Positions 12,087 through 35,770 of a stretch of DNA of 35,962 bases are shown piece after piece. The number at the start of each line of letters is the position of its first letter. Positions within the stretch are counted from its first letter, which is position 1. Source of the stretch: Terriglobia bacterium. Its GTDB lineage: Bacteria > Acidobacteriota > Terriglobia > UBA7540. The notes beneath the pieces were generated by a model. That model worked only from the letters and a program-made list of their open reading frames with translations, was not told where the DNA came from and did no database searches. The DNA lies in NCBI GenBank assembly GCA_049698675.1, contig JBAVYG010000735.1, positions 1 to 35,962 on the forward strand, written 5' to 3'. The position numbers and the translations under genes were made by a program.

Positions 12087-12226
12087 GGCAGAAGGGATTA
12101 GGGAATAGGGAACAGCGAGTAAGCGGGAAGCGGCAGGAAAGAGGCAGAAAGCGGAGGGCAGAAGTCAAATGGCAAAAGGCAAATGGCAAATGGCAAAAAG
12201 CAGAAGGCGGGAGGCAGTAAGCGTCA
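12087..12226. repeat. Heptamer array A1: 20 in-phase degenerate heptamers, consensus RGCRRRA (for example ggcagaa, ggcaaat, ggcaaaa)
   Basis: Parsed by hand. It has 20 consecutive 7-nt units (140 bp) and the top strand is almost purine-only. It starts 21 nt after the pncB stop. Confidence 0.85.
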
Positions 12227-12241
12227 GCTGTTGTGCGTGAG

Positions 12242-12304
12242 TTTCCAGTTTCGAGTTTCGATTTTCGAATTTCCAGTTTCTAATTTCTAGTTTCTGATTT
12301 CCAG
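12242..12304. repeat. Heptamer array A2: 9 in-phase heptamers TTTCNNN (tttccag/tttcgag/.../tttctaa/tttctag/tttctga)
   Basis: Nine perfect-phase units. It ends 11 nt before the pncA ATG. The core TTTCCAG is the reverse complement of the CTGGAAA core at 14553-14573. Confidence 0.85.
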
Positions 12305-12315
12305 TTGGTGCGAGA

Positions 12316-12951
12316 ATGAGTGAACCGAACAAGTCTGGCCGTTTGGTGTTTCTTGATGTCGATACGCAGGTGGACTTTATGTCTCCGAGTGGAAGGCTTT
12401 ATGTGCCACATGCGGAGGAGATCATCCCTAACCTGACGAAATTGATGTTGTGGGCGCGGGACCACAGAATCCCCATCATTTCATCCGCTGATACGCACGC
12501 GCCGGACGACCCGGAGTTCGCCCAATGGCCTCCTCACTGTGTGGTGGGGACGCCCGGCCAGCGCCGCATTCCTGAGACGTTCTTCCCTGACGCCGTGGTC
12601 GTGGAGGACCGTCCGGGTGCCTTTCAGGCCTCCAAAGAATGGGTTGGACAGCTCATCGTGGAGAAGCCAGTGTACGTGGTCTCCGCAAACGTGAATTTCG
12701 ATGCCATCCTGGCTTCGCTTGGCCGGTCTCGCTTCGTGGTGTTTGGCGTGGCCACCGAATACTGTGTACTGTCGGATGTCCTGGCACTGCGCAAGCGCAA
12801 CCTGCCTGTGGCTCTCGTTCGGGATGCCATTAAGCCCATCACCGAAGAGGGGGGTCGGAAGGCCATTGAGGAGATGGTCGCTGCAGGGGTCCAGTTAGTC
12901 ACGACCGCGGCCGTTTGTAGTCCAGGGTTTCAAGGTTTCTGCATGCAGTAA
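12316..12951 (+). CDS. pncA: Nicotinamidase / isochorismatase-family hydrolase
   Basis: 'LVFLDVDTQVDF...YVP', 'SSADTHAPDDPEF..WPPHCVVGTPG' and 'VFGVATEYCV' (catalytic Cys context). Located next to pncB. Confidence 0.8.
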   Translation: MSEPNKSGRLVFLDVDTQVDFMSPSGRLYVPHAEEIIPNLTKLMLWARDHRIPIISSADTHAPDDPEFAQWPPHCVVGTPGQRRIPETFFPDAVVVEDRPGAFQASKEWVGQLIVEKPVYVVSANVNFDAILASLGRSRFVVFGVATEYCVLSDVLALRKRNLPVALVRDAIKPITEEGGRKAIEEMVAAGVQLVTTAAVCSPGFQGFCMQ

Positions 12952-13002
12952 GGCGGCGTGAGCGCCGGTTTCGACAGGCGATTAAATAAACTGGAGGCAA
13001 AT

Positions 13003-13440
13003 GTGGTCAAAGCAAAACTGATGGTGGCTCTGCGAGACCCGGAGTCGGTCGAGAGTCTCATGACCCTGGCGGTCCATCTATCGAACGGCATGGATGCTGA
13101 ACTTGTTGCTCTGCACGTGGTTGAAGTGCCGCCAGCAACGCCCCTCGAGGCAGAGGATGAGGTTTTGGACCACGAGGGAAAAGAGATCCTAGCGGCTGCA
13201 AGACGGGTTGCGGAGAAATCTTCCAAGAAGATATCCACTGAACTGCTGCGGGCACGCGAGGTGGGAGAAGCCATAGTGGGCGAGGCCAAGGACCGGGGCG
13301 CGGAGTTGCTCATCGTGGGACATCGCGGATCCCATACCTCTGCCCTGGGCGAACTTCTCCTGGGAAGCACCGCGCAATATGTAGCCCATCACGCACCGTG
13401 CCGAGTGATCATTCAGATTCCAGCACCCAAGCCGCGCTAG
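13003..13440 (+). CDS. Universal stress protein family (UspA-like)
   Basis: 'AELLIVGHRGSHTSALGELLLGSTAQYVAHHAPCRVIIQ' is the USP C-terminal ATP-binding-type motif. I prefer the GTG at 13003, with GGAGG 5 nt upstream. The ORF track starts at the GTG at 12958. Confidence 0.8.
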   Translation: MVKAKLMVALRDPESVESLMTLAVHLSNGMDAELVALHVVEVPPATPLEAEDEVLDHEGKEILAAARRVAEKSSKKISTELLRAREVGEAIVGEAKDRGAELLIVGHRGSHTSALGELLLGSTAQYVAHHAPCRVIIQIPAPKPR

Positions 13441-13496
13441 GTGAATCTGAACGCAGTATTGGCCCGCACTTTTGAGTGAAGATCGGAAATCGGGAG

Positions 13497-13721
13497 TCAG
13501 ATGAACAAGGGTATGTCGCCATCGACGACATAAGCTTCGGGTTCCAGTGGTGGCTCGGCGATGGTCTGTTGGTTCATGTCCTGTTTGCACGCCAGCATCG
13601 TCCCCACGGCGAGGGAACTGAGTAACAAGACTCCCGGTTGGCACATTGCCCACTGCAGCACTTGCTGCGGGCGAAGGGGCTCATCCTGATTCTTCGACGG
13701 CTCCGGTTGGTTATTCAACAT
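13497..13721 (-). CDS. Possible small membrane protein (74 aa), hypothetical
   Basis: ATG at 13721 with 'gagaagg' upstream. Third-position GC is about 72% by my count. One hydrophobic segment, 'PGVLLLSSLAVGTMLA'. I recognise no homology. Confidence 0.3.
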   Translation of the reverse strand: MLNNQPEPSKNQDEPLRPQQVLQWAMCQPGVLLLSSLAVGTMLACKQDMNQQTIAEPPLEPEAYVVDGDIPLFI

Positions 13722-13947
13722 AGCGCACGACCTTCTCGATTCGTTTATCGGCATTTCCGGCCCAAGCTTGAGCGCTGAATCGCCCGAAATCGAAGGGGCT
13801 GGACCGTCGGTTTGTGGCTTGACTCTACGAGCCGGAGATGGCGTAGAATAGCTGAGGGTTCTTAGTGTTAGCGGACTTTTGTGCTGGCTCTTTGCCATCG
13901 CTGAGCCGCGCCAGAACGGCCCATAACTGCCCGCCTTCGAGGTTCCT

Positions 13948-14526
13948 ATGGTGATCGCATCCCAGCTCCGTCCAGGAACGGTTCTGAAGATAAATAATGA
14001 CCTCTTTAAGGTGATCGACTCGCAGTATCACATCGGACAAGGCAAGATGCCCGGCAGCGTCCACGCGAAGCTGCGCAACGTCCTAAAGGGCACGTTCAAA
14101 GAGTTGCGCTTCCGGCCGGAGGAGCGGCTGGAGGAAACCCAACTCGAGAAGCAAGAGATGGAATTCCTTTACAGCGACACTGATTCGGCAACCTTCATGA
14201 ACCCAAGAACTTATGACCAGGTTTCCATCCCGCTCGAGGCCATCGGCGCGGCGGCGACATATCTCCAGCCTGAGGTGAAAGTGCCGGTGGAGTTCTACGA
14301 AGGGCAGCCGGTCAGCATCGTCTTCCCGGAGATCGTCGAGGTGAAGATCCAGACGACCGCGCAGCCAGTCCACCAGCAACAAGACAACACCTACAAATCC
14401 GCTACGCTGGAAAATGGCACGGAACTGATGGTTCCACAATTCATCAAACCCGGGGAGACGATACGCGTCGAAGTGACTACGGCCAAGTACGTGGACCGCG
14501 TGCGAGCCGATACGAAGAGGTTCTAG
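13948..14526 (+). CDS. efp: Elongation factor P family protein (divergent loop and domain III)
   Basis: 192 aa with EF-P architecture: 'LRPGTVLKINNDLFKVIDSQYH', '...AKLRN', 'MEFLYSD..ATFMNPRTYDQV' and 'VPQFIKPGETIRVEVTTAKYVDR'. The tip Lys33 is retained in the atypical loop 'HIGQGKMPGS'. Confidence 0.85.
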   Translation: MVIASQLRPGTVLKINNDLFKVIDSQYHIGQGKMPGSVHAKLRNVLKGTFKELRFRPEERLEETQLEKQEMEFLYSDTDSATFMNPRTYDQVSIPLEAIGAAATYLQPEVKVPVEFYEGQPVSIVFPEIVEVKIQTTAQPVHQQQDNTYKSATLENGTELMVPQFIKPGETIRVEVTTAKYVDRVRADTKRF

Positions 14527-14551
14527 CAGTGACGAGGGAGAAGAGGAGACT

Positions 14552-14656
14552 AGAAACTGGAAAATGGAAACTGGGATCCTGGTCTTTCCCCACCTACGAC
14601 ATACGACCTACCACCTACCACGTACGACCTACCACCTACCACGTACGACCTACCAC
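14552..14656. repeat. Heptamer array B: CTGGAAA-type units followed by about 9 CTACSAC units, including two perfect 21-nt copies; left arm of the inverted repeat bracketing the GNAT gene
   Basis: Units gaaactg/gaaaatg/gaaactg at 14553-14573. Units ctacgac/atacgac/ctaccac... at 14594-14656. 14608-14628 is identical to 14629-14649. The stretch 14552-14621 is the reverse complement of 15289-15372. Confidence 0.9.
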
Positions 14657-14733
14657 CCACCCCGTCATGCAATTTGTACTATGGCAAACATCGCCTGAGC
14701 TTGCTAAGATAGACCTTACTTTTCGCTAAAATC

Positions 14734-15279
14734 ATGGATACGCCAGGCCTCAACGTCTCCGCCAGACCGCACTTCCAGCTCAAAGTGCGTCCGGCCGAAT
14801 TGCGGGACGCATCCGACATTGCCCGCATCTATCTCCAGGCGACGCAAGACAACCTTGCTACCTTTGAGAACTTCCTCCATACGCCCGAGGAGCGAACGCG
14901 CTGGGTGAATGAACATGGGGGGAAGTATCCTCTCCTGGTGGCGGAGTTGAATGGTTGGATTCTGGGCTGGGCAGCGCTCAGTCCATACCTCGTCCGTCCC
15001 CGCATGGAGGGAATCGCTGAGCTCCTGATCTACATTGACCGCGACTACCGGCGGCATGGCGTGGGGCGGGAAATAATGCGCGCGGTCCTGGCAATCGCCG
15101 AGGCCGTGGGCCACTTCAAGCTGGTGGGCCGGTTCCTGGCGCACAACGATGCTGGCCGGACGCTCTGCCGCCTGACGGGCTGGCGCGAGGTGGGAGTGCA
15201 CTTGAAACACACCAAGCTGGAGGGGCGCTGGCACGACGTGGTGGTGGTTGAGTATCTAATCGCCGAGAACTTGAAGTGA
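14734..15279 (+). CDS. GNAT N-acetyltransferase, phosphinothricin/L-amino-acid acetyltransferase (PAT/YncA-like) family
   Basis: 'VRPAELRDASDIARIY...ATFE...EERTRWVNEHGGKYPLLVAE..GWILGWAALSPY..R.....AELLIYIDRDYRRHGVGREIM' and 'KLEGRWHDVVVVEYLI' fit the PAT-type GNAT pattern. Confidence 0.85.
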   Translation: MDTPGLNVSARPHFQLKVRPAELRDASDIARIYLQATQDNLATFENFLHTPEERTRWVNEHGGKYPLLVAELNGWILGWAALSPYLVRPRMEGIAELLIYIDRDYRRHGVGREIMRAVLAIAEAVGHFKLVGRFLAHNDAGRTLCRLTGWREVGVHLKHTKLEGRWHDVVVVEYLIAENLK

Positions 15280-15288
15280 CGGCAATTG

Positions 15289-15372
15289 GTGGTAGGTGGT
15301 AGGTCGTATGTGGTAGGTGGGGAAAGACCAGGATTCCAGTTTCCGCCTCCCAGTTTCTATTTTCCAGTTTCT
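15289..15372. repeat. Heptamer array C: GTGGTAG units followed by AGTTTCC-type units; right arm of the inverted repeat bracketing the GNAT gene
   Basis: Units gtggtag x3, gtcgtat, then agtttcc/agtttct. The reverse complement matches 14552-14621 at 68/70 positions, with a 14-nt (two-unit) insertion. Confidence 0.9.
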
Positions 15373-15397
15373 GCTTTCTTGCTCGTCCTTGAAAAGA

Positions 15398-15474
15398 TGG
15401 CAGGCGTGGAGGGACTCGAACCCCCGACCCACGGATTAGAAATCCGTTGCTCTATCCACCTGAGCTACACGCCC
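15398..15474 (-). tRNA. tRNA-Arg (anticodon TCT), CCA encoded
   Basis: The reverse complement GGGCGTGTAGCTCAGGTGGATAGAGCAACGGATTTCTAATCCGTGGGTCGGGGGTTCGAGTCCCTCCACGCCTGCCA folds as a cloverleaf. Anticodon stem ACGGA/TCCGT, loop TTTCTAA, T-loop GGTTCGAGTCC. Confidence 0.9.
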
Positions 15475-15551
15475 CCAGCACCTTACAAATGAATAATATC
15501 GGTGGCTTCGGCCCAAGTCAAATAAATGGACTGTCAGGTAGGGTCCTAATA

Positions 15552-15628
15552 TGGGGTGGGTGACGGGATTCGAACCCGCGACGTCCAGATCCACAGTCTG
15601 GCGCTCTACCAGCTGAGCTACACCCACC
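15552..15628 (-). tRNA. tRNA-His (anticodon GTG) with encoded G-1 and CCA
   Basis: The reverse complement is G+GTGGGTGTAGCTCAGCTGGTAGAGCGCCAGACTGTGGATCTGGACGTCGCGGGTTCGAATCCCGTCACCCACCCCA. Anticodon loop CTGTGGA. An extra 5' G lies opposite discriminator C73. Confidence 0.9.
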
Positions 15629-15741
15629 ACAACTGCGGGGCTCGCGTGCAGGTAGCCTCTATACCTTTGTAACACCGGGGGTGAAGGGTGTCAACTAATC
15701 GGGTGATCGAGTGAGCAAGAAACCGCCCCCTCGGCTCTCAT

Positions 15742-15833
15742 GTCATTCCGAGCGTAGCGAGGAATCTTGCTCTGGGCTTGGGCGTATGTGGAGGCAATAA
15801 TCGAAGCGAGATTCCTCGCTACGCTCGGAATGA
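15742..15833. repeat. Palindromic element: 25-26 bp perfect inverted repeat (gtcattccgagcgtagcgaggaatct / agattcctcgctacgctcggaatgac) with a 41-nt spacer
   Basis: Arms at 15742-15767 and 15809-15833 are exact reverse complements. The element lies in the intergenic gap between tRNA-His and the gene at 15899-16372. Confidence 0.85.
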
Positions 15834-15898
15834 CACCTGGGGCATTCCACCTGGAGCATCACGCCTCTTTTTGAACGCCCGATCACCGGAACGCCCGA

Positions 15899-16372
15899 TT
15901 ACCGGGTTGACTCGTCGGCGGGGATTTCCTGGAGCTCCGTAGGATGCTGGCAGCAGACGCAATCGCCGGGTTCAAGGGCCTCGATATTACATACTTTGCA
16001 GAAATAACGCACTCGGAAGAGCTTCCCACTCTTGACCGTGTAGAGCCGCTCGACCTCAAATGTTCCATCGGCTTTCATCGTTCCTTCGAGCCGGATCTCG
16101 CGGTTGGCCAAGCGTTTGTCCAGCAAGGTGTGGAACAGATAAGTGGTGGTGGCGGAGAGGGGCTGGTCCTTTTCATGTATTCGTAAGACCGGCCCTTGCC
16201 CAGGGATGGAGAGCAGCTTCCCTTCCAGGGCTGCCAAATGAAGTGTTTCGCCTTGGGCCGCGTATAAAGGGGAAGCTGACAGCGCAGCCGTCCACACAAT
16301 CAGGCCAATCGCCATCACTCGCATTGAGGGGCTCGGGCAGGTCTCGTGCTGTTGTTTTTCTGAGGAGTACAT
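15899..16372 (-). CDS. Hypothetical secreted protein with C-terminal Cys cluster (CxxC-x9-CxCC)
   Basis: Signal-like 'MRVMAIGLIVWTAALSASPLYAAQG' (alternative start ATG at 16324). C-terminus 'CKVCNIEALEPGDCVCC'. I recognise no family with confidence. Confidence 0.6.
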   Translation of the reverse strand: MYSSEKQQHETCPSPSMRVMAIGLIVWTAALSASPLYAAQGETLHLAALEGKLLSIPGQGPVLRIHEKDQPLSATTTYLFHTLLDKRLANREIRLEGTMKADGTFEVERLYTVKSGKLFRVRYFCKVCNIEALEPGDCVCCQHPTELQEIPADESTR

Positions 16373-16392
16373 CAAGTTAATTTCACCATTGC

Positions 16393-16462
16393 TTCATTGA
16401 GTCATTGATTCATTGACAAAAAAACCTTGGAATGCTTTTCAATGATTCAATGACTCAATGAA
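16393..16462. repeat. Octamer-repeat hairpin: (tcattgaN)x3 and (tcaatgaN)x3 arms, 23/24 complementary, 22-nt A-rich loop
   Basis: Left arm 16393-16416 (ttcattgagtcattgattcattga). Right arm 16439-16462 (tcaatgattcaatgactcaatgaa). It lies between two tandem minus-strand genes, just after the stop at 16484. Confidence 0.8.
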
Positions 16463-16483
16463 CCAATCACTCAATGCCGTTCG

Positions 16484-17149
16484 TCAGCCCTCCCACTTTC
16501 CGACCACCGTGAACGCTATCGGAAGATCGCCGCCTGACCCGTGAACCTTCACCTGGAGGTCCCAATGGCCCTGATCATCTTTGACCACAGCCGGGAAGCT
16601 GTCTCCATTCAACGGCGCGCCCACGAGGAAACCAGGGTGCGGCGTGCCCGACGATTGGCGGCCCAACTTTACGAGGTCATCAAATTTCAGGGCGGTGGCG
16701 AGATCGTTGTCCACGGCGACGGGGCAGAGGATCAATACGTCCCTGGTAGGGTTCACCCCCATATGATTTCCGTCCTGAGGAATCAACCCGTAGCGCAAAG
16801 TATAAAACCCCGGCTTGATGGCCTGGCCGCGGAAATCAGCTCCCTGACTGGGGAAGTGCAGCACGCCAAGGAACACTCCTTCACTCAGAGAAGCATAGAG
16901 AAAGTCCGAAGAACCGCCGGCGCTGGAGCTGGTGGGCACGCTCTTGCGTAACCACACCTCCAGCAACGTGCCTCCCTGGTCGTTTAATACCCGCGTTCCC
17001 TGTGATTCCAATGCATCTTGCAAGGGTTTGGAAAGGTCTGCGACTGGCGGCGCTCCGGCGTTTTCCACTTTGTAGGTCTGTCCAAACGCCATGCTTGCCA
17101 AGACAAGTTGCGAGGCAAGAATCAACACCTGCGCGCGATGCAGTTTCAT
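16484..17149 (-). CDS. Hypothetical secreted protein
   Basis: ATG at 17149 with an upstream 'gaggg'. Signal peptide 'MKLHRAQVLILASQLVLASMAFGQ'. Long ORF with coding-like composition. I recognise no family. Confidence 0.65.
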   Translation of the reverse strand: MKLHRAQVLILASQLVLASMAFGQTYKVENAGAPPVADLSKPLQDALESQGTRVLNDQGGTLLEVWLRKSVPTSSSAGGSSDFLYASLSEGVFLGVLHFPSQGADFRGQAIKPGFYTLRYGLIPQDGNHMGVNPTRDVLILCPVAVDNDLATALKFDDLVKLGRQSSGTPHPGFLVGAPLNGDSFPAVVKDDQGHWDLQVKVHGSGGDLPIAFTVVGKWEG

Positions 17150-17282
17150 AAAGTAGCCCTCATTTCTTAGATGCTCTGAACTCAAAACCGGGAACGCCGG
17201 AATAACCTGCTTCCCGTTTCTATTCTATTGTGCGGCACGCGACCGGGAAAAATCTAGCAGGTTGCTGAAAAATGGTATTGGG

Positions 17283-17324
17283 GGCAGAAGTCAGGCGTCA
17301 GAAGTCAGGAGTCAGAAGAAGAAA
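17283..17324. repeat. Heptamer array E1: ggcagaa gtcaggc gtcagaa gtcagga gtcagaa gaagaaa
   Basis: Six in-phase units with core GTCAG. Related to the A1 units (ggcagaa, gtcaaat). Confidence 0.8.
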
Positions 17325-17438
17325 CCAAGTGCCAGCACCGATAGCGCAAGTCACGCCGTCTTGATCTGGGGCTTGCCAGGCGAAAAATGGAGTAACCATA
17401 GGGCAGCCGGCAAGCAGGTCAGTGGAATGGGGCTGGAG

Positions 17439-17510
17439 GCTGACCGCTGAACGCTGACCCGCCGCGGCGGGACGACTGACCACTAACCACTGACTACTGA
17501 CCACTGACTA
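17439..17510. repeat. Heptamer array E2: gctgacc gctgaac gctgacc ... gactgac cactaac cactgac tactgac cactgac
   Basis: About ten in-phase units with core CTGAC, the complement of the E1 core. An embedded palindrome, ccgccgcggcgg, is present. The array abuts the stop codon (17511-17513) of the minus-strand gene. Confidence 0.8.
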
Positions 17511-18188
17511 CTAGAGCGAGAGCGAAAACCTGCCCACAAAGGCGCTGCGTTTACCCATGTGGTTCCAGACCACATTCAAACCCTTGCCTTGGAACGAATC
17601 CTCAATTGTGAACGCAGGCATGGCGTGAGCCAGTTGAACGAGCGGCGGATAGAATACGAACTCGTTCCCGCAGATGTCGTCGCCATGGCACAAGCTGCGC
17701 GTTTCAATGCGCGCCAAGTTCCCGGCCACAAGGCGGGCAGTGCCGTGGTCCTCTCCCTGAGCGAAGGCCAAATGAATAGGGGCTGTTTCAACGCGAACCA
17801 CGTGGCTCAGGAGCTTCCCGGCCATGGCAGCGGCGAAATCCTGTAGGGCCAAGCGTTGCCGGGGGGTGGCCCGTTGGTCGACAATCAGTACGGACTCGGC
17901 TGGATAAGGAGTATGGTAGGGATCACCTAATGTGGCATGGGCCTTCACGACTGCCACAACGCCCAGGCCGTTCAAACTGGTTCCCCTCCAGTCGCCTTCT
18001 TTGATTCTCCATGCCAGGATCGCCTCGTTTCCAACCAGGCCAACTTCGCCGTTGGCGAAGCATGGGCCGGTGTAAACATCTGCGCTTCGCGCTTCGATAT
18101 AGTCTCCCTTGATTGCCGCGCTGCCTGGGATGGCCAACAGCACCATCAGAGCTAACCCCACAACCGCTTGAAGACAAAGCTTCCGCAT
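17511..18188 (-). CDS. Hypothetical secreted protein (resembles DUF1326-type proteins; family assignment tentative)
   Basis: ATG at 18188 preceded by 'aaggaggg'. Signal peptide 'MRKLCLQAVVGLALMVLLAIPGSAA'. 'GDYIEARSADVYTGPCF...ILAWRIKEGDWRGTSLNGLGVVAVV' recalls the DUF1326 layout. This is from memory only. Confidence 0.65.
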   Translation of the reverse strand: MRKLCLQAVVGLALMVLLAIPGSAAIKGDYIEARSADVYTGPCFANGEVGLVGNEAILAWRIKEGDWRGTSLNGLGVVAVVKAHATLGDPYHTPYPAESVLIVDQRATPRQRLALQDFAAAMAGKLLSHVVRVETAPIHLAFAQGEDHGTARLVAGNLARIETRSLCHGDDICGNEFVFYPPLVQLAHAMPAFTIEDSFQGKGLNVVWNHMGKRSAFVGRFSLSL

Positions 18189-18548
18189 GATGTACCCTCC
18201 TTCGAGCAAATTACTCAGATCGCCCCACGCCTATTCGATGTCTGAGGAAACCGAGAGTTACTCCCACGACGCGCGCGGCGAGTCCATCCCGCCACTGGCG
18301 TCTGGTTCCAAAAGCTCGCTTGCTTACGGCTGAATCGGAAGGGCGGGGTATTAACCTGAATCAAAGTTGGAGTGGGCACTATGCGTGTCTTGTAGGGACA
18401 CGGTCCCGCCCTGCGAGGCCAGATGAGGGGTCCGAAACGGGGATAGGATTTCCGCGACTGAGGTGGCAATCTTGCGGTTAACAGCGGGGTCGCGTGTTCT
18501 GCCCCGGCTTCCTTCAGGACGTGGATTTTCGGGTCGCGCTCACGCAGA

Positions 18549-19886: not shown

Positions 19887-20031
19887 TTGCCTTAGTCCTG
19901 TTTGATTTGCGGAGCTGCTGCGGATGGTCGGCGACCCTGGTTGAGCCCGATGCGCTCTTCAGGCTCCGCTTCCCTGGTCGGTCGCAGCAGCCACTCGTTT
20001 ATTATTGCCGTACCGATCCGTGCCGGAGGCA

Positions 20032-20250
20032 TCAGAGGGATTCGTAGCAAGCACGGCCCGGTTTGCAGTTCTCCATACTGGCTATCTCACCATCCGGCCC
20101 AAGGCAATTCTGGGTGTGGACGCACCAACAGATGCCGCTGTCGGAGCGGGGGACTGTCGGGTCAGGTTCAGCTTCGATAAACATCCACTTGGAGCGCAAC
20201 AACCGGCAACGCTCCTGGGAAATGCCAGGCTGAGGAGTGGGTTCAGGCAT
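20032..20250 (-). CDS. Small Cys-rich protein (72-74 aa) translationally coupled to the molybdoenzyme operon
   Basis: The GTG at 20256 overlaps the upstream TGA stop (GTGA), or the ATG at 20250 lies 2 nt after it. Six Cys residues ('ERCRLL', 'GICWCVHTQNCLGPDG', 'ENCKPGRACY'). Confidence 0.55.
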   Translation of the reverse strand: MPEPTPQPGISQERCRLLRSKWMFIEAEPDPTVPRSDSGICWCVHTQNCLGPDGEIASMENCKPGRACYESL

Positions 20251-20252
20251 AA

Positions 20253-26557: not shown

Positions 26558-26563
26558 AACCGC

Positions 26564-27076: not shown

Positions 27077-27118
27077 CCACATACCACCTACTACCTACCA
27101 CATACCTGCTGCCTCCTG
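27077..27118. repeat. Heptamer array F: ccacata ccaccta ctaccta ccacata cctgctg cctcctg
   Basis: Six in-phase units, C-rich and G-poor on the top strand. The CTACC/CCACC vocabulary matches arrays B and C. Confidence 0.7.
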
Positions 27119-27495
27119 CTCGTCGGTTCGTGAACAACTCAGTGGATGTGCTTGACCTTCTTTTGCAGGTAATCCATCAGGGGGAGATCTCACAGCCGGC
27201 GATGAAGGGGATGGAATCGTCGAGAAGCGTTACCAGCGAGCGAAGAATATAGAACTCCGCCCGGCATTACTCTGCTAGGTTCAGGTGAGAATACGGTAGT
27301 GGGTCAGTTTCCGCCAAGGGCGTTATCCGGCCCAGCGGCGCCCTGCTGCTTAGGGAGTGGCAAGGTTTCTTCCGAGCGCGCCGTCATCCGTCCGTAATCT
27401 CTGGCGCCGTAGAATGATCAGTAAACACAAGGCGACTTATGGGGAGAAATACGGAGGACCGGCAGTAACCGTTCGCCGATGAGCCACTTGAAGCA

Positions 27496-29006: not shown

Positions 29007-29014
29007 TAATCGGA

Positions 29015-29182
29015 ACCCACATATTGGAAGAAGGCGCGGATCTGCGCGCCATCCAGGAACCGCTCGGCCACGAGTGGCTTTCCACCACCCAGCGCTACAC
29101 CCAAGCCACCACAAAACAGGTGCTGGAAGTTTACCACAAGACCCCTCCCCGGGCGCGCTCAGCGCGTTTTACCAGCGGCTGA
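29015..29182 (+). pseudogene. C-terminal remnant of a tyrosine recombinase/integrase (XerC/D- or phage-integrase-like), about 50 codons
   Basis: '[47 protein letters not shown]' matches the box II region, with the catalytic Tyr in 'QRYTQ'. No N-terminal 250-300 codons exist upstream; the MFS gene occupies that DNA on the other strand. Confidence 0.7.
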
Positions 29183-29657
29183 TCGGAAATTGTTCGCCAG
29201 CCAGCGGCCGCAAGAGCAGCACCGGGCAGGGCGCATGATCCAGAACAAAGCGCGCAACATGCCCGACTGATCGCGGGCCAATATGTGGTGGCTCCCCATA
29301 TTCCGCACGCGGGCAAATGAGAATCACATCCGCTCCCCACTCTGCGGCGGCGTTTACGATTTCAAGCTCAGGACGCCCCTGTCGCGACAGTGTCTCCGCC
29401 TGGGGCAAGTAACCGAGTCCCGCCTTCAAAATCTCTTCCGAAGCTGCCCTTTCTGCCGCCTGCATTTCATCTGTAACGGGTTCATGGTGCAACGGCGGCC
29501 GCCAGAATCGTTCACGTGTGCGGTCGATGTCTCTGCGCGGGCCAACATCAATCACCGTCAGCAGAGCAATCGTCAGAGGCTCAGCCGTGGAAAACATCTG
29601 TGCTGCATGGCTGACCTGTTTGGCATTTGTGCCATCCAGACAACAAAGAATTCGCAT
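29169..29657 (-). CDS. Universal stress protein family
   Basis: '[10 protein letters not shown]...' and '[10 protein letters not shown]...[25 protein letters not shown]'. AAGGAGG lies upstream of the ATG at 29657, which is 25 nt after the permease stop. Confidence 0.8.
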
Positions 29658-29681
29658 CAATGCCTCCTTCTGCAAACCTGC

Positions 29682-30998
29682 CTACAAGCACAGCCAGATT
29701 GTGAACGCACCTGCGAGTAACATCAACGGAGTAACGACGACGCCCACTTTGAAATAGTCGAGCCCCGAAACATCCACGTCCCGTTGGCGCAGAATGAGTA
29801 ACCAGAGAATCGTAGCCAAAGACCCGACCGTAGTAAGGTTCGGGCCCAGATCGCAACCAAACATGGTGGCCGCGACGAAGCCATTTCTTGTTGCCGGAGC
29901 CGCATTCTGAACAATACCGAGAGAAGAATTCATGACTACAGCCATGGGTACGTTATTGATTAAGTTTGTCCCTAGGGCCGACCCCAACGCGCCAACCATC
30001 ACTGCTCCAAAGCTCGTACCGCCGGAGAGATGCAGGAGCAGGTTGCCCAGTTTGAGCGTAAGTCCGGTGTCCTCGATGGCACGCACGACAACGAACATTC
30101 CCGCGATGAATCCAAAAATCGGCCACGAGATCCCTTTACATGCTTCCAGCACGGTCGTCCGCTTCCAGAACAGGGCGCCCGCAAGTAGTAACAACGCGCC
30201 CGCCACTGCCACCACGGAAAGCGGAAACTGAAAAGCAGATGCAAGCACATACGAGGGCGCAACCAGCGCAAGCGCCCCCAATGTATAACGAAAGTAAGTC
30301 CGATGCTTAACGGCCTTCTCTGCCGTGGGCAGACGGCTGGTGTCAAAAGATCCTCTAAGCTTCTTGCGGTAGAGTAGGTAGAAAATCCCAAGGTTAATTG
30401 CGATTACAACGAGACTGGGAAGTAAGAGCAGCCGCAGGAAGGTTAGAAGATCGAGCGGGAAGCGCGACATGATAATGATGTTGATCGGATTGCTGATGGG
30501 TAGCAGGAACGATGCGGTATCAGCAATGAAGGTGCATGCGAACAGGTAAGGCAGAACCGGAAGCCGTAACCTTGTCACCAACACATAAACGACTGGCGTC
30601 AGGATAAGCGCCGTCGCATCGTTGGAAAATATCATCGTGATAAGTGTTCCCAAGAGAAACACATTCAGGAACAATCTGGCCGCACTTCTTTTGGCGAATC
30701 GCGCGGCTTGTACTGCCAACCAATCAAACAACCCGGCCGTTTCCGCCAGCGCAGATAACCCCATCATTCCCAGGAAGAAGAGAAACGTATTCCAGTCGCG
30801 GAGCAGAGTAAATGCAGCATCCGCAGGCCGGATCAAACCCAAAAGAAGCAGAGTGCCCGCGCCGGCCATGGCGATTCGCGCCTCACTCCAGCGAAGGGGA
30901 CGAATCATGATGCCGGCCAGTGTCAGCAAGCCGATGATCGAGGTAAGAAGTGTTCTCCAGAATTCCGATAGGGGGAAGAACAGAAACACAGGCCGCAT
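29682..30998 (-). CDS. ArsB/NhaD-superfamily (arsenical pump / citrate-transporter-like) permease
   Basis: 438 aa, polytopic. 'NDATALILTPVV', 'FLLPISNPINIIIM', 'GTNLINNVPMAVVM' and 'GPNLTTVGSLATILW' are typical of the ArsB/NhaD/CitMHS fold. Confidence 0.85.
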   Translation of the reverse strand: MRPVFLFFPLSEFWRTLLTSIIGLLTLAGIMIRPLRWSEARIAMAGAGTLLLLGLIRPADAAFTLLRDWNTFLFFLGMMGLSALAETAGLFDWLAVQAARFAKRSAARLFLNVFLLGTLITMIFSNDATALILTPVVYVLVTRLRLPVLPYLFACTFIADTASFLLPISNPINIIIMSRFPLDLLTFLRLLLLPSLVVIAINLGIFYLLYRKKLRGSFDTSRLPTAEKAVKHRTYFRYTLGALALVAPSYVLASAFQFPLSVVAVAGALLLLAGALFWKRTTVLEACKGISWPIFGFIAGMFVVVRAIEDTGLTLKLGNLLLHLSGGTSFGAVMVGALGSALGTNLINNVPMAVVMNSSLGIVQNAAPATRNGFVAATMFGCDLGPNLTTVGSLATILWLLILRQRDVDVSGLDYFKVGVVVTPLMLLAGAFTIWLCL

Positions 30999-31849
30999 CC
31001 TTTCAACAGGAATCTCGTTTTTCAGCCCTAAATCGCCCGAATTCTACTACTCCGGAGCGGTTTTGCAAGGCCAAAGCTGCATCTTCAAACGAAAAGCGGA
31101 GTGATGCCGCACCATGTCGGGCTTTGCCGCGTAATCGAGCGCGTTCCTCGTCGATTTCTCGGTCACTGCTCCCTCCTCCTTCGTTCTCAGCGATTCGGTT
31201 TTCGCACCTTGAAGCCAGTTGTTAGCTCCAGCCCTGACCCTGAAAGAGACTATGAAGACGACCGCGAGACTGGTCCTCAATGACATGCGCGTTCGGTCTG
31301 TTCGGCATGTGACGTTCTTCTTTCGGCCTAACTTATGTAGGCTGGTCTGGATAAAACCGGCCCTGGCGAGCATAAGATGCAACCGCCACCGCACTAATGT
31401 CAAGCTGATCGTATAAAATTGTAACGGCAAGGTGTCTGCGCAAAGAAGACAGCGCCTCATCACGCTGCCGAGCGGTTTCCGCGCCTTGGGTGCCGGGGAT
31501 TACCTCCTGTCACCGGAAATGCGGGATAGATCCCGTGTAACGCCGTTGTGTAGACCGAAGCCCCTCAACTCCTGTATCGTCGTACGGACTCGGAAACTAC
31601 CTAGCCCCTTGCGTTTCTTCCTCTGACGCCGGTGGTCACTTGGCCGTGTAGTCGGCTTGACCGGAAACTGATCCAGCACCGGGAATACCGATGAATTGCC
31701 TTTTCGATCGAGAGGAATTGCACGGACTGCTGCAAATGCCAAGAGCGTGATCCAAGGGTCATTGTCATTAGCGTTCGCCTCGTTCCAACCTGACCGAATG
31801 TAACAGAGTAATACCAGCCAACTGCTCAAGAGGGCCACAGGGGCGGTGT

Positions 31850-32494
31850 CTAACGCCGTATGTTACCGTTCCCCCCGGCCTTATCGCGGGCTTCTTGAGC
31901 GGCGTCGATTTGGTGGATCAGTTGGTCCATCGCGTGGACCACATGCTGAAGTCGCTCCGGTTCATTTCGCAGCGAAAGGAGTCGTTGCTTGAATTCGAGC
32001 GCCACAGGAAGCGACGCAGCGAGACGGAAGGATAGGTGGCGGTAAGGCTGGGGCAGGTCGACCGGCATCTCAGATGCCTGGTGCAACCGTCGCATGATTT
32101 CCCGGAAAAGTCGGACGGCGTTTTCAGCCTCTGTCTCTCCCGGCGTGTCTGGACCTTCGTCGTCGAAGAACTCGACGGAGGCGCGCAGGTAAGATTTCTC
32201 CTCGTTGGTCAACAGTATCTCGAACCGGCGTTTGCCCACCGTCAGGATGTCCATGCGGCCGTCATCGTATTTCCGCGTGACAGTCACGATCTGTGCGCTG
32301 CAACCGACATTTGAAATCTCCTGGCCCTTGCCCAAAACCACCCCGAAATCCTGCCTGCCGAAGCCGGAAGTCTTCGCCCGGAGGCACTCGCCGATCATTT
32401 CACGGTAGCGTTCTTCGAAGATGTGGAGAGGCAATGCTTCTTCAGGAAGGAGCACCAGCTCGAGGGGAAATAGGGGCAGGAGAATCTCTTCCAT
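31850..32494 (-). CDS. Lon protease N-terminal (LON substrate-binding) domain-only protein
   Basis: 'LLPLFPLELVLLPEEALPLHIFEERYREMIGECL' plus 'GCSAQIVTV.....DGRMDILTVGKRRFEIL'. I prefer the ATG at 32494, 10 nt after the upstream stop. Confidence 0.8.
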   Translation of the reverse strand: MEEILLPLFPLELVLLPEEALPLHIFEERYREMIGECLRAKTSGFGRQDFGVVLGKGQEISNVGCSAQIVTVTRKYDDGRMDILTVGKRRFEILLTNEEKSYLRASVEFFDDEGPDTPGETEAENAVRLFREIMRRLHQASEMPVDLPQPYRHLSFRLAASLPVALEFKQRLLSLRNEPERLQHVVHAMDQLIHQIDAAQEARDKAGGNGNIRR

Positions 32495-32504
32495 GGGGCA
32501 CCAA

Positions 32505-33470
32505 CTACTGGAGCGGCTCGAACTCGGAACCATTCCAGGCGCACGCCTTGGTGACTTTTACTGAGTTCAGGGGTTTGTCTTGCCCGACAGCGCGGAACTC
32601 CACTGTAGCTTTCCAGACAGGTATGTACATGTTGCCGCGCGGTTGAAATTCCACTTCAGCTTTGGTCACCGTGCCAGGCGCGCCGGCGTTCTTCTCGAGG
32701 GGATGGAGTATTTGCAGCTCGGAAGGGAAAAAGTCGAGGTTTCGAGACTCGAGGGGAGCTGACCAGAGCGTTCTGAAATTGCCGCGCTCGAGGCGGCGAA
32801 TCACGATGTTCACTCCAAAAGCCTCGGGGCCCTTGCGGAAGGGCTCGTGCGTGATGAGGCACTCGATTCCGTCCCCCAGGAGGTCGCGCACCTCCACAGA
32901 CAGGATTCCGGGCTTCATTTCGGAGAAAGGGAACTCGAGCCAAGGGCCGCGTGTGAAATTCCCCCCGCGAGGCAGGAAGGCTACCAGTCGCGAAGCTGGA
33001 AGCATAACCGACGCAACCAAGCAAACCAGCGCAGGGCCGGAATTCCCCTGTTTGACCAGCCAGCGCGACAACGCTACCTTTGATAACGTGAAATCGTCCT
33101 GATATTCGCCGCCGAGCTGGCGCAGTAGCTCTTCGTCACTGGGAAAACGATCGATGGGAACAATCTCCACCTTGCTGGGATCTACCCAGGCATCGACAGG
33201 ATTGAGCGTCGAGAGGTCGGTAATGCGGAGCATGGCCCGATTCTTGCCATGCTTTGACTCCGTTCTTAGCACGGGTACCAGCGCTCCCCGGCCCACACTC
33301 AGTGGCTTGGTTCTTCGGCCCAGCGCCCTTTGCATAAGCTCGAGCGGTCCTTCTTGGACATAGCACCATGCGATTGGCTGATGACTATCCCTGTCTTGGG
33401 CGGAGACAATCGTGACGGCAATGATACCGGTGATTATGAGCCAGCCGAGACCTTTCGATGAAAATCGCAT
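32505..33470 (-). CDS. Hypothetical secreted/anchored protein
   Basis: N-terminal hydrophobic 'GLGWLIITGIIAVTIVSAQ'. A 320-aa ORF with coding-like composition, in tandem with the Lon-N gene. I recognise no family. A GTG at 33479 is an alternative start. Confidence 0.65.
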   Translation of the reverse strand: MRFSSKGLGWLIITGIIAVTIVSAQDRDSHQPIAWCYVQEGPLELMQRALGRRTKPLSVGRGALVPVLRTESKHGKNRAMLRITDLSTLNPVDAWVDPSKVEIVPIDRFPSDEELLRQLGGEYQDDFTLSKVALSRWLVKQGNSGPALVCLVASVMLPASRLVAFLPRGGNFTRGPWLEFPFSEMKPGILSVEVRDLLGDGIECLITHEPFRKGPEAFGVNIVIRRLERGNFRTLWSAPLESRNLDFFPSELQILHPLEKNAGAPGTVTKAEVEFQPRGNMYIPVWKATVEFRAVGQDKPLNSVKVTKACAWNGSEFEPLQ

Positions 33471-33662
33471 GTTGTCCACTATTGTTCACACCCGGCGGGA
33501 GTTTGACAAACAAAATCGTGCGCCCTAGACTGTGCAGTCGCCCTGCTAGGCCCTCCGGGCGGAGGCGTCCGGAAGATGGGCGCGTATTACCATGAGCGCG
33601 GCACAGATTTTGGCAGGCATCAGCCCCACCCTCGTCAAGCCTGCGCGGGGCTTACGTTTCTT

Positions 33663-34631
33663 ATGGTCACATACGAGATACATTCTGCACAGGTTCCATC
33701 CCGCCCTTCCGGGGTGAATTCTCCGGGCAGCGCAACGGTTTTGCTCTGCGTCTTGGCTGCAACGCTTTCGATTCTGCTGTCGCCCGCGGCGTCCGCGCGC
33801 ACAGTTAAAGATCAGACTGGCCGAAGTGTAGATGTCCCGAACAAACCTCACCGCCTGGTTTCCCTTGCTCCCAATATTACGGAGATCGTTTATGCTCTGG
33901 GGCTGGGCGACGAACTGGTAGGGGACACGGATTACTGTGATTTTCCACCGCAGGCCAAGAACAAGCCGCACGTCGGAACGATGGTGAATCCCAGTCTGGA
34001 AAGGATCGTCGCGCTGAAGCCTGACTTGGCGCTGGGCACGCCGGAGGCCAATCGGCGTGAGACAGCCGACCAGCTTGAACGGTTGGGTATACCCCTTTAC
34101 GGCGTGACGGCAAGCACCCTGGTAGGGACTCTGGCCTCGATCGAGGACCTGGGGAAAATACTCGGACGCGCTTCGGAGGCGAGGAGTCTTGTGGCGGAGA
34201 TGCAAGCCAGGATTGACCGGGTGGAAAAACGGATTGAAGGTCAGCCCAAGCCCAAGGTGCTCTTCGTCGTTTGGTATCGCCCTCTAATCACGGTCGGCCC
34301 CAGTACATTTATTGCCGACGTGATCCGCGCCGCAGGCGGGATTCCTATCGGAGAGAACCTGAAGGGTGAATGGCCACGATTAACCCTGGAGGAGTTGCTG
34401 CCGCAGAATCCCGACGTGATCCTCTTACCCAAGACCGAGTCTTTTTCTCCCAGCGCGGAGGAATTCCAAAGCCTCCCCGGTTGGAAGGATTTGCGGGCGG
34501 TGAAGGAACGCCGAATGTTTTTCGTCTCCGAAACCGTCATGCGGCCCGGCCCGCGCCTCGTTGATGCCTTGGAAGAGTTGGCAGGTGTCCTGCACCCTAC
34601 GGTGGCCTTCAAGACGGGAGAGCACCAATGA
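33663..34631 (+). CDS. ABC-transporter periplasmic binding protein, cluster A-II (BtuF / Fe-siderophore-type, PF01497-like)
   Basis: Signal 'ATVLLCVLAATLSILLSPAASA'. 'RLVSLAPNITEIVYALGLGDELVGDTDYCDFP' and 'KPDLALG' are BtuF-like. The ORF track starts at 33576; I prefer the ATG at 33663. Confidence 0.85.
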   Translation: MVTYEIHSAQVPSRPSGVNSPGSATVLLCVLAATLSILLSPAASARTVKDQTGRSVDVPNKPHRLVSLAPNITEIVYALGLGDELVGDTDYCDFPPQAKNKPHVGTMVNPSLERIVALKPDLALGTPEANRRETADQLERLGIPLYGVTASTLVGTLASIEDLGKILGRASEARSLVAEMQARIDRVEKRIEGQPKPKVLFVVWYRPLITVGPSTFIADVIRAAGGIPIGENLKGEWPRLTLEELLPQNPDVILLPKTESFSPSAEEFQSLPGWKDLRAVKERRMFFVSETVMRPGPRLVDALEELAGVLHPTVAFKTGEHQ

Positions 34632-35629
34632 CCTTTCCGGCAACACCCAGGAATGTGATTGTGGTTGCGGCGGTAATGTCCTTGCTTCTTGTCCTAACGG
34701 TGTTGGTTTCTTTGACGATGGGCGCGGTCCACTTGCCGTTGTCGGAAGTCTGGGCGGCGCTGGTATCGCCGGGGAAGAACTCCGAGGCGGCTGTCATCGT
34801 GCGGGGGATTCGACTCCCACGAATTCTCCTGGCCATTCTCGTGGGTGCTGCGCTTTCGGTTGCAGGCACGAGCCTTCAGGCCTTGCTGCGCAACCCTCTG
34901 GCCGACCCCTACGTTCTGGGAATCTCCAGCGGCGCAGCGGTGGGAGCCATCTTCGCTCTTTGGATTGGTGGGCGCATTGCGGCTGCCTCACCGCTGGCGG
35001 CTTTTGTCGGGGCAGTGATCACCATGGTTTGGGTTTACTTGCTGGGAAGGCACGGCGGACGCCTGTCGAGTTACACGCTGATCCTGGCCGGCGTCATTAC
35101 GGCCTCCTTCTTATCCGCCGTAATCCTGTTCATGCTGACCCTGCTTTCCACCAGGGATGTCCGCGGCATCGCGTTTTGGCTGATGGGTGACCTCAGCGTG
35201 ACACCGGTTGCGGAGCTGCGTTTCCTGGCGCCGGCAATTATCCTGGCCATTGCGGGTTTGTATGTGTTTGCCAAGGATCTGAATGTCCTGCTCCTGGGCG
35301 CTGAGGAGGCAGCCCACTTGGGAGTAAATGTTGCGCGCGTAGAGGTGGGCGTCTATATCCTGGCGTCGTTGCTGACCGGGATTGCGGTCTCTGCCAGCGG
35401 CGCAATTGGCTACCTTGGCTTGCTGGTGCCGCACCTGGGCAGAATGCTGGTGGGTAACGACCACCGCATGCTGTTGCCCACCGCGGCCCTGGGAGGCGCT
35501 ATCCTCCTGGTGCTGTCAGATACACTCGCTCGAACCGCGGTGGCGCCTGCGGAACTTCCGGTCGGCGCCGTCACCGCCGTGGCGGGCGCGCCGGTGTTCA
35601 TCTACTTGCTGAGAAAGACCGCAGGATAG
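34628..35629 (+). CDS. ABC-transporter permease, FecCD/BtuC family
   Basis: 'RLPRILLAILVGAALSVAGTSLQALLRNPLADPYVLGISSGAA' and 'GAIGYLGLLVPHLGRMLVGNDHR' are FecCD signatures. ATGA overlap with the binding-protein gene. Confidence 0.9.
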   Translation: MTFPATPRNVIVVAAVMSLLLVLTVLVSLTMGAVHLPLSEVWAALVSPGKNSEAAVIVRGIRLPRILLAILVGAALSVAGTSLQALLRNPLADPYVLGISSGAAVGAIFALWIGGRIAAASPLAAFVGAVITMVWVYLLGRHGGRLSSYTLILAGVITASFLSAVILFMLTLLSTRDVRGIAFWLMGDLSVTPVAELRFLAPAIILAIAGLYVFAKDLNVLLLGAEEAAHLGVNVARVEVGVYILASLLTGIAVSASGAIGYLGLLVPHLGRMLVGNDHRMLLPTAALGGAILLVLSDTLARTAVAPAELPVGAVTAVAGAPVFIYLLRKTAG

Positions 35630-35630
35630 G

Positions 35631-35770
35631 GAATTCTGAATTGTGAATTCTGAAGTGTGGAGTCCGAAGTGTAAAGTCTGAAGTGTGAAGTCTGAATGAT
35701 GAGTCTTGAATCTTGAATCTCGAATTTTGAATTGCCTTCAACTGACAACGGACCACGGACGACCAACCTT
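35631..35770. repeat. Heptamer array G: 20 in-phase heptamers (15 x GAAKTST-type, then cttcaac tgacaac ggaccac ggacgac caacctt)
   Basis: Parsed by hand. 140 bp in unbroken 7-nt phase. It starts 2 nt after the permease TAG and ends 5 nt before the ATPase ATG. Confidence 0.85.

Follow-up and report, generated by a model that had tools for sequence, protein, structure and literature searches.

Heterogeneous heptanucleotide repeat arrays with a stop-codon-anchored arm order in a Terriglobia lineage from peat soil

Many intergenic regions of a 35,962-nt stretch of DNA (contig JBAVYG010000735.1 of assembly GCA_049698675.1, hereafter the window), which derives from an uncultured Terriglobia (Acidobacteriota) lineage of peat soil, are occupied by degenerate tandem arrays with a 7-nt unit. 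The arrays are long heptameric simple-sequence repeats (LSSRs) of the heterogeneous intergenic kind described by Rehm et al., with which they agree in all five features of the class. In most occupied spacers a purine-rich arm lies at the stop codon of the upstream gene and a pyrimidine-rich arm follows before the next gene. What is new is the lineage and its set of words; the kind of repeat is known and does not form a new class, because the same syntax was published for Xanthomonas and Nostoc (Rehm et al. 2015, PMC4692102). The best explanation, with a probability of about 0.55, is that the arrays are passive repeats subject to a tolerance filter at the transcript level.

Sequences and repeat detection

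Tandem repeats were called with Tandem Repeats Finder (TRF), and 200 dinucleotide-preserving shuffles of the window served as the null. Relatives were collected by scanning species-representative genomes with the NAPRTase (PncB) protein. The 44 loci obtained were nearly all from Terriglobia/Acidobacteriota metagenome-assembled genomes (MAGs), and the SPRUCE peat and Microflora Danica projects had contributed many of these. Independent sites were retrieved by scanning metagenome contigs for GGAAACTGGAAAWTGGAAA, which gave 120 loci (792 kb), most with 56-62% G+C. This seed is a GGAAACT-type word, so the hairpin fraction and the word counts given below are skewed toward that word. Genes were called with a simple codon-usage caller, which reproduced the Joint Genome Institute (JGI) calls of the window and whose start codons are approximate. 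The statistics on gene context cover 104 loci and 894 kb, 79% of it coding.

Period-7 arrays in the window and in related loci

TRF placed period-7 arrays, many of them also called with periods of 14 and 21, at 12093-12208, 12240-12306, 14545-14574, 14590-14665, 15288-15320, 15334-15378, 17285-17318, 17439-17513, 27077-27106 and 35631-35760. The initial annotation of the window had listed eight intervals with a 7-nt period, and all eight were recovered both by TRF and by their lag-7 identity, which ranged from 0.57 to 0.77 versus 0.11 to 0.42 at lags of 5, 6, 8 and 9. It had also described the 7-nt phase as unbroken. The heptads do read in this way, except that the CTGAC core within 17439-17510 is displaced by 1 nt across a GC-rich insert. 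Whether two arrays measure exactly 20 units, as had been stated, is a matter of how their limits are set; TRF ended these arrays at 12208 and 35760.

The signal exceeded the dinucleotide shuffles. Period-7 rows numbered 15 in the window against a mean of 0.74 in the shuffles (maximum 4), and period-14 rows 6 against 0.1, with the other periods near expectation. The 120 metagenome loci gave 519 period-7 rows, against 19 of period 6 and 79 of period 8. The same locus was found in four separate JGI metagenome assemblies, where all arrays were base-for-base identical and showed no copy-number variation. Comparable arrays lay on relatives' contigs of 0.8-1.3 Mb, including Microflora Danica MAG contigs of 0.8-1.2 Mb. 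Together, the identical assemblies and the long contigs rule out an assembly artefact, a concern raised at the outset.

The units are heterogeneous with fixed positions, such as TTTC+NNN, C[CG]AC[CGA]TA and GGCA[AG]A[AT], in agreement with the fixed cores and variable positions first noticed. Consensus units fall into 133 rotation classes of words, so there is no conserved recognition sequence. Most units are A/T-rich GAAA or TTTC words; GAAA occurs in 52% and GGA in 47% of consensus units, and purine-oriented consensus units contain about 30% G and 14% C. Words are common to several unlinked spacers, and unlinked arrays are about 76% alike. A CRISPR array, already dismissed in the initial annotation, can be rejected, the units being 7 nt long and contiguous in contrast to CRISPR repeats of 23-50 nt with unique spacers between them. 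An Rfam search at the gathering score assigned the arrays to no family and returned two tRNAs as its sole matches.

Position and order of the arms

The description of the arrays as non-coding and stop-adjacent proved correct over the 894 kb. Array density was 80 bp/kb in non-coding DNA versus 6.6 bp/kb in coding DNA, and only 23% of array bases fell inside predicted coding sequence. Arrays occupied 33% of co-directional spacers (140/422), 26% of convergent and 15% of divergent ones (13/87), and the under-use of divergent relative to co-directional spacers was significant (p = 5e-4). Most of the window's arrays had been said to begin 0-25 nt after stop codons; the measured distances were 21, 18, 8, 0 and 1 nt. 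In co-directional spacers generally, the first array began a median of 6.5 nt past the stop codon, and many arrays ended about 9-16 nt before the next start codon.

The order of the arms was strongly biased. At the pncB loci, the left arm was purine-rich on the top strand and the right arm pyrimidine-rich in all 30 of the 30 bipartite clusters. Purine-then-pyrimidine pairs outnumbered the reverse by 84 to 8 in the 120 metagenome loci (p = 4e-17) and by 50 to 3 in the co-directional spacers of the 104 loci. Solitary arrays followed the same pattern: lone purine-rich arrays lay a median of 3 nt from the stop codon, with 27 of 36 nearer the stop than the start, and lone pyrimidine-rich arrays a median of 9 nt from the next start, with 24 of 28 nearer the start. 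In convergent spacers, a purine-rich arm followed the stop codon of each gene on that gene's sense strand. Within the window, the rule of a purine arm at the stop and a pyrimidine arm second was obeyed by six of the seven heptamer spacers, the exception being the array at 27077.

Predicted folding of the arm pairs

Thirty-five of the 38 independent bipartite elements from the metagenome loci, a fraction subject to the seed bias, had a predicted fold with z below -3 against dinucleotide shuffles (median z = -6.3). Near-perfect predicted stems of 25-40 bp lay exactly between convergent stop codons at loci L155, L137, L152 and L123. When the order of heptads in the second arm was permuted, the folds were not weakened (median z = 0.18). 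This gives no support to unit-by-unit compensation between the arms, to upkeep of the palindrome or to selection on matched units, and indicates that they pair through complementary cores in any 7-nt register rather than through matched units.

The window's own arrays behaved differently from most independent sites. Its pncB, efp and acetyltransferase spacers had fold z values near 0, since the words of one arm are not complementary to those of the other, and most arm pairs of the window ranged from -0.3 to +1.2. A hairpin reading was thus rejected for these arrays, and the folding model suggests that most of the window's arms have diverged or decayed too far to pair.

A scan of 11500-18500 placed neither canonical intrinsic terminators nor sigma-70 promoters at the arrays. 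The region as a whole, which contains several gene ends, is depleted of terminator-like sites, with 1 site, not at any array, versus 7.1 +/- 2.2 in shuffles.

Inverted repeat around the acetyltransferase gene

A long inverted repeat at 14535-15389 (plus strand), which the initial annotation had missed, encloses the acetyltransferase (gnat) open reading frame (ORF). The segments 14545-14621 and 15289-15365, which flank the gene, are 90% reverse complements over 77 nt, and the match can be extended to about 100 nt. The predicted RNA duplex of the two blocks spans about 100 bp and reaches -149.8 kcal/mol, compared with -55 +/- 6 when one partner is shuffled. Folding of the complete gnat region gives 105 pairs with a span of more than 500 nt. 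The copy on the efp side occurs only in the window and in L006. Sequence comparison shows that this upstream block is an inverted duplicate of the entire gnat-tRNA spacer, and it is the derived copy because the downstream one is present in all four close species.

A unique 62-nt segment at 14666-14727 accompanied the insertion of the inverted array ahead of the acetyltransferase gene. In a search for its source, matches were limited to the window's own assemblies and L006.

Distribution and turnover among relatives

Relatives keep the order pncB - isochorismatase gene - (usp) - efp - acetyltransferase, which allows a direct comparison of their spacers. According to TRF, period-7 arrays were abundant in L005-L008 (PncB identity 95-97%) and in L012-L017 and L040 (about 81%). 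They were short or degenerate in L009-L011 (86-87%) and L039 (75%), and essentially absent from relatives with a PncB identity of 70% or less. The array trait is therefore lineage-specific.

The pncB spacer measures 45-105 nt and lacks arrays in distant relatives; inside the clade it measures 128-417 nt and carries arrays of varied words and lengths. In the 15 relatives with a spacer orthologous to 12087-12226, the arrays differ in length and wording. The efp-gnat junction is 4-11 nt in L005, L008, L009 and L011, but 198-207 nt with arrays in the window and L006, and arrays can be present or absent between sister species. Between the window and L005, L006 and L008, the third codon positions of flanking genes are 92-94% identical, whereas identity falls to 77-87% in the orthologous array, which shows indels of 7 and 14 nt. 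The arrays thus change more rapidly than synonymous sites, and they do so by whole units; their turnover carries the signature of slippage and not of sequence conservation.

The seed word extends beyond this clade. The exact 19-mer GGAAACTGGAAAWTGGAAA was present in metagenome contigs of 30-40% G+C (L054, L089, L099, L107, L109, L122, L143, L154 and L162), which cannot be Terriglobia, so the word is not exclusive to the array clade. The arrays in the two of these that were inspected, L143 and L162, were short (4-5 units).

Individual arrays of the window

The genes that flank the arrays were identified correctly at the outset: NAPRTase, EF-P, acetyltransferase, XRE-type helix-turn-helix and FecCD assignments all hold. 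All of the arrays described here were called by TRF, and they are given on the plus strand unless stated otherwise.

The pncB-pncA spacer contains two arms. The purine-rich arm (12087-12226) consists of GGCAGAA, GGCAAAW and GGGAATA units, with TRF periods of 7 and 14 at 12093-12208. Its first base lies 21 nt past the stop codon of the NAPRTase gene pncB (12065), its lag-7 identity is 0.65, and 79% of its bases are purines. The pyrimidine-rich arm (12240-12306; TTTC plus three variable bases; periods 7, 14 and 21) has a lag-7 identity of 0.77 and only 32% purine over 12242-12304, and stops 9 nt short of the ATG of the isochorismatase-family gene (12316). The two arms showed no significant pairing (fold z +0.67 and -0.22).

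Four arms surround the acetyltransferase gene. Downstream of efp, a purine-rich arm of GGAAACT and GGAAAAT units (14545-14574) begins 18 nt past the stop codon (14526) and belongs to the inverted repeat I1/I2, with its counterpart in 15334-15389. It is followed by a C-rich, G-poor arm of CCACCTA, CGACCTA and CCACGTA units (14590-14665; TRF score 88 at period 7, 92% matches at period 21), which precedes the acetyltransferase start (14734) by 68 nt and carries a 21-nt higher-order repeat. The two perfect 21-nt copies reported in this array are indeed present, as CCTACCACCTACCACGTACGA at about 14608-14649. The arm is 93-97% complementary to 15289-15320, that is, to the G-rich GGTGGTA arm (15288-15320) that begins 8 nt past the acetyltransferase stop codon (15279). 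The position of this G-rich arm is kept in L005, L006 and L008, with 7- and 14-nt indels. The fourth arm is pyrimidine-rich (15334-15378; TTCCAGT, or ACTGGAA on the minus strand) and forms an inverted repeat with 14535-14576; read on the minus strand, it starts 19 nt past the 3' end of the tRNA-Arg gene (15398).

The strand asymmetry claimed for every array was upheld for those with a single word, including 12087-12226 and 12242-12304 with the purine contents given above and 27077-27118 with 48% C and 7% G. The intervals 14552-14656 and 15289-15372 are not asymmetric as wholes (46-48% purine), because each joins two different arrays, with a unique junction of 15-21 nt.

Two minus-strand arrays share the spacer between the DUF1326 gene and a 221-aa gene. 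The stop-adjacent arm (17439-17513; periods 7, 14 and 21) reads GTCAGTR on the sense strand, which has 38% G and 25% C, and the TAG stop codon lies inside its last unit (distance 0). The second arm (17283-17324) has the sense word TTCTGAC, which is complementary to the GTCAG core of the first. The fold of 17285-17513 was significant, at z = -2.96 with 32 pairs across the centre.

The array that breaks the rule is an orphan of CCACMTA units (27077-27118; C 48%, G 7%), which lies 174 nt past the stop codon of an XRE-type gene and has neither a partner arm nor an adjoining gene end. It is 76% like 14590-14623. A search for a small ORF near this array found none that was convincing.

The last array (35631-35770; periods 7 and 14; lag-7 identity 0.67) consists of GAAKTST and TGAATCT units followed by C/A-rich units. 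It occupies the entire operon-internal gap from the FecCD permease stop codon (35629, at a distance of 1 nt) to the start of an ABC ATPase gene (35777). The FecCD identity comes from Pfam, and the Walker A motif GPNGSGKST is present in the product of the ORF that follows. Within this operon of iron-siderophore transporter type, the whole gap (35631-35776) is thus repeat DNA, and no obvious Shine-Dalgarno sequence precedes the ATG at 35777.

The layout is not strictly bound to the 7-nt unit, because a period-8 inverted pair on the minus strand (16388-16467; TCATTGAN units; TRF periods 8 and 16), likewise overlooked in the initial annotation, has the same arm-pair architecture. Its arms (I5, 32 nt, 91% complementary) form a strong predicted hairpin (z = -5.9) that begins 7 nt past the stop codon of the 221-aa gene. 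The TCATTGAN 8-mer is also present in the pncB-pncA spacer of L006.

Outside the arrays, a single structural difference separates the window from the three other assemblies of the locus: a 42-bp segment (CTACCTGTGGAGTTCTGAGCGCCGTCCTGAGCGTATTTGAA...) that is single in the window at about 7396-7437 is tandemly duplicated in L001-L003 (about 6672-6755). Upstream of this repeat, L001 1-6715 differs from window 727-7438 at 73 positions (98.9% identity), while downstream the identity is 99.99%. The break, with its boundary at the 42-bp repeat, reflects either a strain mosaic or an assembly chimera.

Comparison with known repeats

The REP, BIME and REPIN palindromes of Enterobacteria and Pseudomonas are high-copy hairpins that lie after stop codons and inside operons and are rare in promoter regions. 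REP palindromes can modulate the 3' ends of mRNA, and their conserved sequence is recognised by the RAYT transposase. The Terriglobia arrays differ in that they share only period, polarity and position, and not sequence. Membership in this group was rejected, given 133 unit classes, unlinked arrays only about 76% alike and no conserved palindrome. A separate REP/MITE-like family does occur in the same loci: a conserved palindromic element of about 95 nt at 15741-15835 (GTCATYCYGAGCGNAGCGARGRATC plus its complement) was found in 31 of the 168 fetched loci, often nested in the loops of heptad hairpins (e.g. L012-L014, L123).

Heterocystous cyanobacteria carry the STRR heptanucleotides, with units CCCCAGT, TTGGTCA and CAACAGT. 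Like the present arrays, these are tandem heptanucleotides in non-coding DNA, with several word families per genome; to our knowledge, a stop-anchored two-arm syntax is not part of their definition. The STRR words gave no tandem 14-mers in the window, and STRR3 tandems were seen in one searched locus. Membership in the cyanobacterial family was rejected on this ground and because the relatives are Terriglobia MAGs. The initial annotation had named STRR as the sole analogue. The arrays are of the same general STRR-like kind, but the heptamers of Xanthomonas and Nostoc share their syntax (PMC4692102, which also mentions STRR in Calothrix PCC 7601).

Heptamers are the commonest class of long simple-sequence repeats in prokaryotes, according to Mrazek 2007 as quoted in PMC4679880. 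The closest published case is that of Rehm et al., who described (GGGANTN)n in Xanthomonas campestris and X. axonopodis and GGGGA(C/T)T in Nostoc PCC 7120 (PMC4692102). Those repeats have heterogeneous units with fixed positions, are 89-93% intergenic, and have mean distances of 28 nt to the upstream ORF and 160 nt to the downstream one, with the G-rich strand downstream of an ORF on its coding strand. They form 70-75 nearby pairs, always convergent, and are under-represented in divergent spacers. They are transcribed and variable between sister species, and no regulatory role was found for them. The Terriglobia arrays resemble them in the 7-nt unit with fixed and variable positions, intergenic location, proximity to the upstream ORF, a purine- or G-rich strand downstream of the ORF on its coding strand, convergent pairs and deficit in divergent spacers. 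The same spacers are likewise occupied in sister species with other lengths and sequences, with no link to gene function. The Terriglobia arrays differ in phylum and in their words, which are of the GAAA, GGCA, GGTGGTA and GTCAG types. They also reach 20 units, and their arm pairs often fill the entire gap from stop to start as long A/U-rich hairpins. G-quadruplexes are not expected, because the units mostly lack runs of three or four G.

Two further heptamers offer partial parallels. TAACTGA direct repeats occur in marine Beggiatoaceae, some Cyanobacteria and Bacteroidetes, as one dominant word in 2-6 copies, in forward orientation just upstream of start codons (MacGregor 2015, PMC4679880). 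They too are intergenic, change by 7-nt indels between strains and abut start codons, as do the pyrimidine-rich arms here; in contrast, the Terriglobia arrays have many words, greater length and the stop codon as main anchor. The (ATCTTTC)n repeat in the 5' untranslated region (UTR) of Haemophilus influenzae hmw1A forms a long hairpin cleaved by RNase III (Rapun-Araiz et al. 2025, PMC12721329), and change of repeat number at the hmw locus needs both RNase III and transcription. The hmw1A array is transcribed, and its partner in the duplex is an arm rich in purines; a long duplex of this type is predicted at the 35 folding metagenome sites and for the gnat-flanking pair, but not at most spacers of the window. 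Unlike the Terriglobia arrays, the hmw1A repeat belongs to one phase-variable virulence locus, where it lies in a 5' UTR and its pyrimidine arm precedes the purine arm; the Terriglobia arrays occupy hundreds of housekeeping spacers with the purine arm first and without copy-number variation among the four assemblies.

The published words are not the same sequence family as ours. Tandems of STRR1-3, TAACTGA, GGGAATC, GGGGAYT and ATCTTTC words were essentially absent from the searched loci; GGGAATC gave four tandem 14-mers in 1.6 Mb and none in the window. The claim that such arrays had not been reported for a genome of this kind stands, as a literature search found no description in Acidobacteria.

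Origin and possible function of the arrays

The arrays are heterogeneous heptanucleotide LSSRs, which we suggest have proliferated in one clade of peat Terriglobia. The comparisons between relatives point to replication slippage that adds or removes 7, 14 or 21 nt at a time, with occasional inverted copying of a whole spacer. The arrays would survive only in untranslated DNA. They would also be transcribed along with adjacent genes, since many occupy operon junctions that leave no room for a promoter. The survivors appear to obey a rule at the transcript level: a purine-rich arm with G in excess of C at the stop codon and a pyrimidine-rich arm before the next gene. Complementary cores could then zip in any 7-nt register, and the long hairpins would loop the inserts out. 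In the purine-first order, C-rich RNA would be paired as it emerges and never exposed alone, so that Rho would have little chance to load. A hairpin reaching from the stop codon to the ribosome-binding site may also keep both cistrons physically close. The syntax would thus represent a tolerance filter rather than a sequence-specific function, and any function would probably be secondary and dependent on structure, e.g. as a processing site or a stabilising stem-loop.

Several observations support this explanation: the period-7 excess, the non-coding bias, the clade limits, the turnover in unit steps, the expansion of the efp-gnat junction, the 133 words, the arm order, the closeness of lone purine-rich arrays to stops and of lone pyrimidine-rich arrays to starts, and the strong predicted hairpins at 35 of 38 independent elements. 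The lack of unit compensation agrees with it, as does the decay of the arms in the window's housekeeping operons to a non-pairing state. By analogy, the absence of a regulatory role for repeats with the same syntax is also consistent with passive arrays (PMC4692102). Other points weigh against it. A purely mutational origin on its own predicts neither the strong arm order nor the anchoring at stop codons, and the proposed filter is itself an inference. The skew toward GAAA cores, in 52% of consensus units, could be a sign of a binding preference. In addition, the gene calls come from our own codon-usage caller and the loci carry the GGAAACT seed bias.

The strongest competitor, which we regard as possible but doubtful, is that the arm pairs are functional RNA stem-loops, selected as RNase III sites, 3'-end protectors or weak bidirectional terminators. 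The stem of about 100 bp around the acetyltransferase ORF, with its duplex of -149.8 kcal/mol, would then excise or insulate that cistron in the manner of rRNA processing stems, and the H. influenzae hairpin cleaved by RNase III provides a precedent (PMC12721329). The independent elements fold far better than shuffles, near-perfect hairpins sit between convergent stops, arrays begin a few nucleotides past stop codons, and as a result of the purine-first order the 3' arm carries U tracts on either strand. An alternative 3'-end device may also be needed because terminator-like sites are scarce in 11.5-18.5 kb. In contrast, most arm pairs of the window do not pair, and convergent spacers are occupied no more often than co-directional ones. 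Arrays have also entered junctions of 4-11 nt, at which termination would do harm, and their sequence changes faster than synonymous sites without compensatory matching of units.

It seems unlikely, although a broader idea, that the stop-anchored purine-first syntax reflects an unrecognised general process rather than passive tolerance. A process linked to transcription or to hairpins in RNA could write or resize such arrays, by analogy with the hmw locus, or they could be widespread 3'-UTR or intercistronic elements read by a dedicated protein. If this were true, the 7-nt steps would act as a tunable dial on operon polarity.

A multivalent binding platform is also quite improbable. In this model, a single-strand-binding protein with a footprint equal to the 7-nt spacing would coat the arrays on RNA or DNA and so tune translation or chromosome structure, with cold-shock/OB-fold proteins, ribosomal protein S1, or CsrA on GGA motifs as candidates. 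The fixed cores of 4-5 nt with variable other positions fit this model, as do the frequencies of GGA and GAAA and the pyrimidine-rich arms directly before starts, for which a similar role was proposed by MacGregor for TAACTGA (PMC4679880). The 133 unrelated words, the fast turnover and the presence or absence between sister species argue against it; moreover, no candidate protein was identified, and analogous repeats had no regulatory effect (PMC4692102).

The initial annotation had read the C-rich, G-poor arrays as Rho-utilisation (rut) sites that load Rho on the incoming transcript. As a general reading this found no support, and we consider it very unlikely. A rut site is a stretch of roughly 70-80 nt of C-rich, G-poor, unstructured RNA that lies upstream of the release zone on the transcript to be terminated. 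The unpaired CCACCTA-type arrays at 14590-14665 and 27077-27118 are rut-like in composition (C 45-48%, G 7-8%, 42-76 nt), so that for these two the idea is conceivable, and canonical intrinsic terminators are scarce in 11.5-18.5 kb. What speaks against the reading is that a G-rich arm, and not a C-rich one, directly follows the stop codon. The C-rich arm is distal, abuts the next gene and is predicted to be base-paired in 35 of the 38 independent sites, and most units are A/T-rich GAAA or TTTC words instead of C-rich ones. Many arrays are operon-internal and end 9-16 nt before the next start, so efficient termination would silence the downstream gene.

Spread by a transposase as non-autonomous MITE- or REPIN-like (miniature inverted-repeat) elements is scarcely credible: the arrays are hairpin-shaped, intergenic and stop-adjacent like REP/REPIN, with one clear local inverted duplication and words common to unlinked spacers, but unlinked copies are only about 76% alike, conserved ends, loops and target duplications are lacking, arm lengths vary continuously in 7-nt steps, and the same genomes contain a truly conserved palindromic family as a contrast.

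Significance

The arrays extend a known, unexplained class of repeats to a new phylum and do not constitute a new kind of system. About one-third of the co-directional gene gaps in the sampled loci of this abundant peat-soil lineage carry them, and operon junctions of less than 12 nt have grown through them to 200 nt or more. For this reason, they matter for gene calling, assembly and the reading of operon structure in Terriglobia. The same syntax is now documented in three phyla, from the literature in Gammaproteobacteria and Cyanobacteria and from this work in Acidobacteriota, and because it is common to all three, the purpose of bacterial heptamer repeats becomes more testable.

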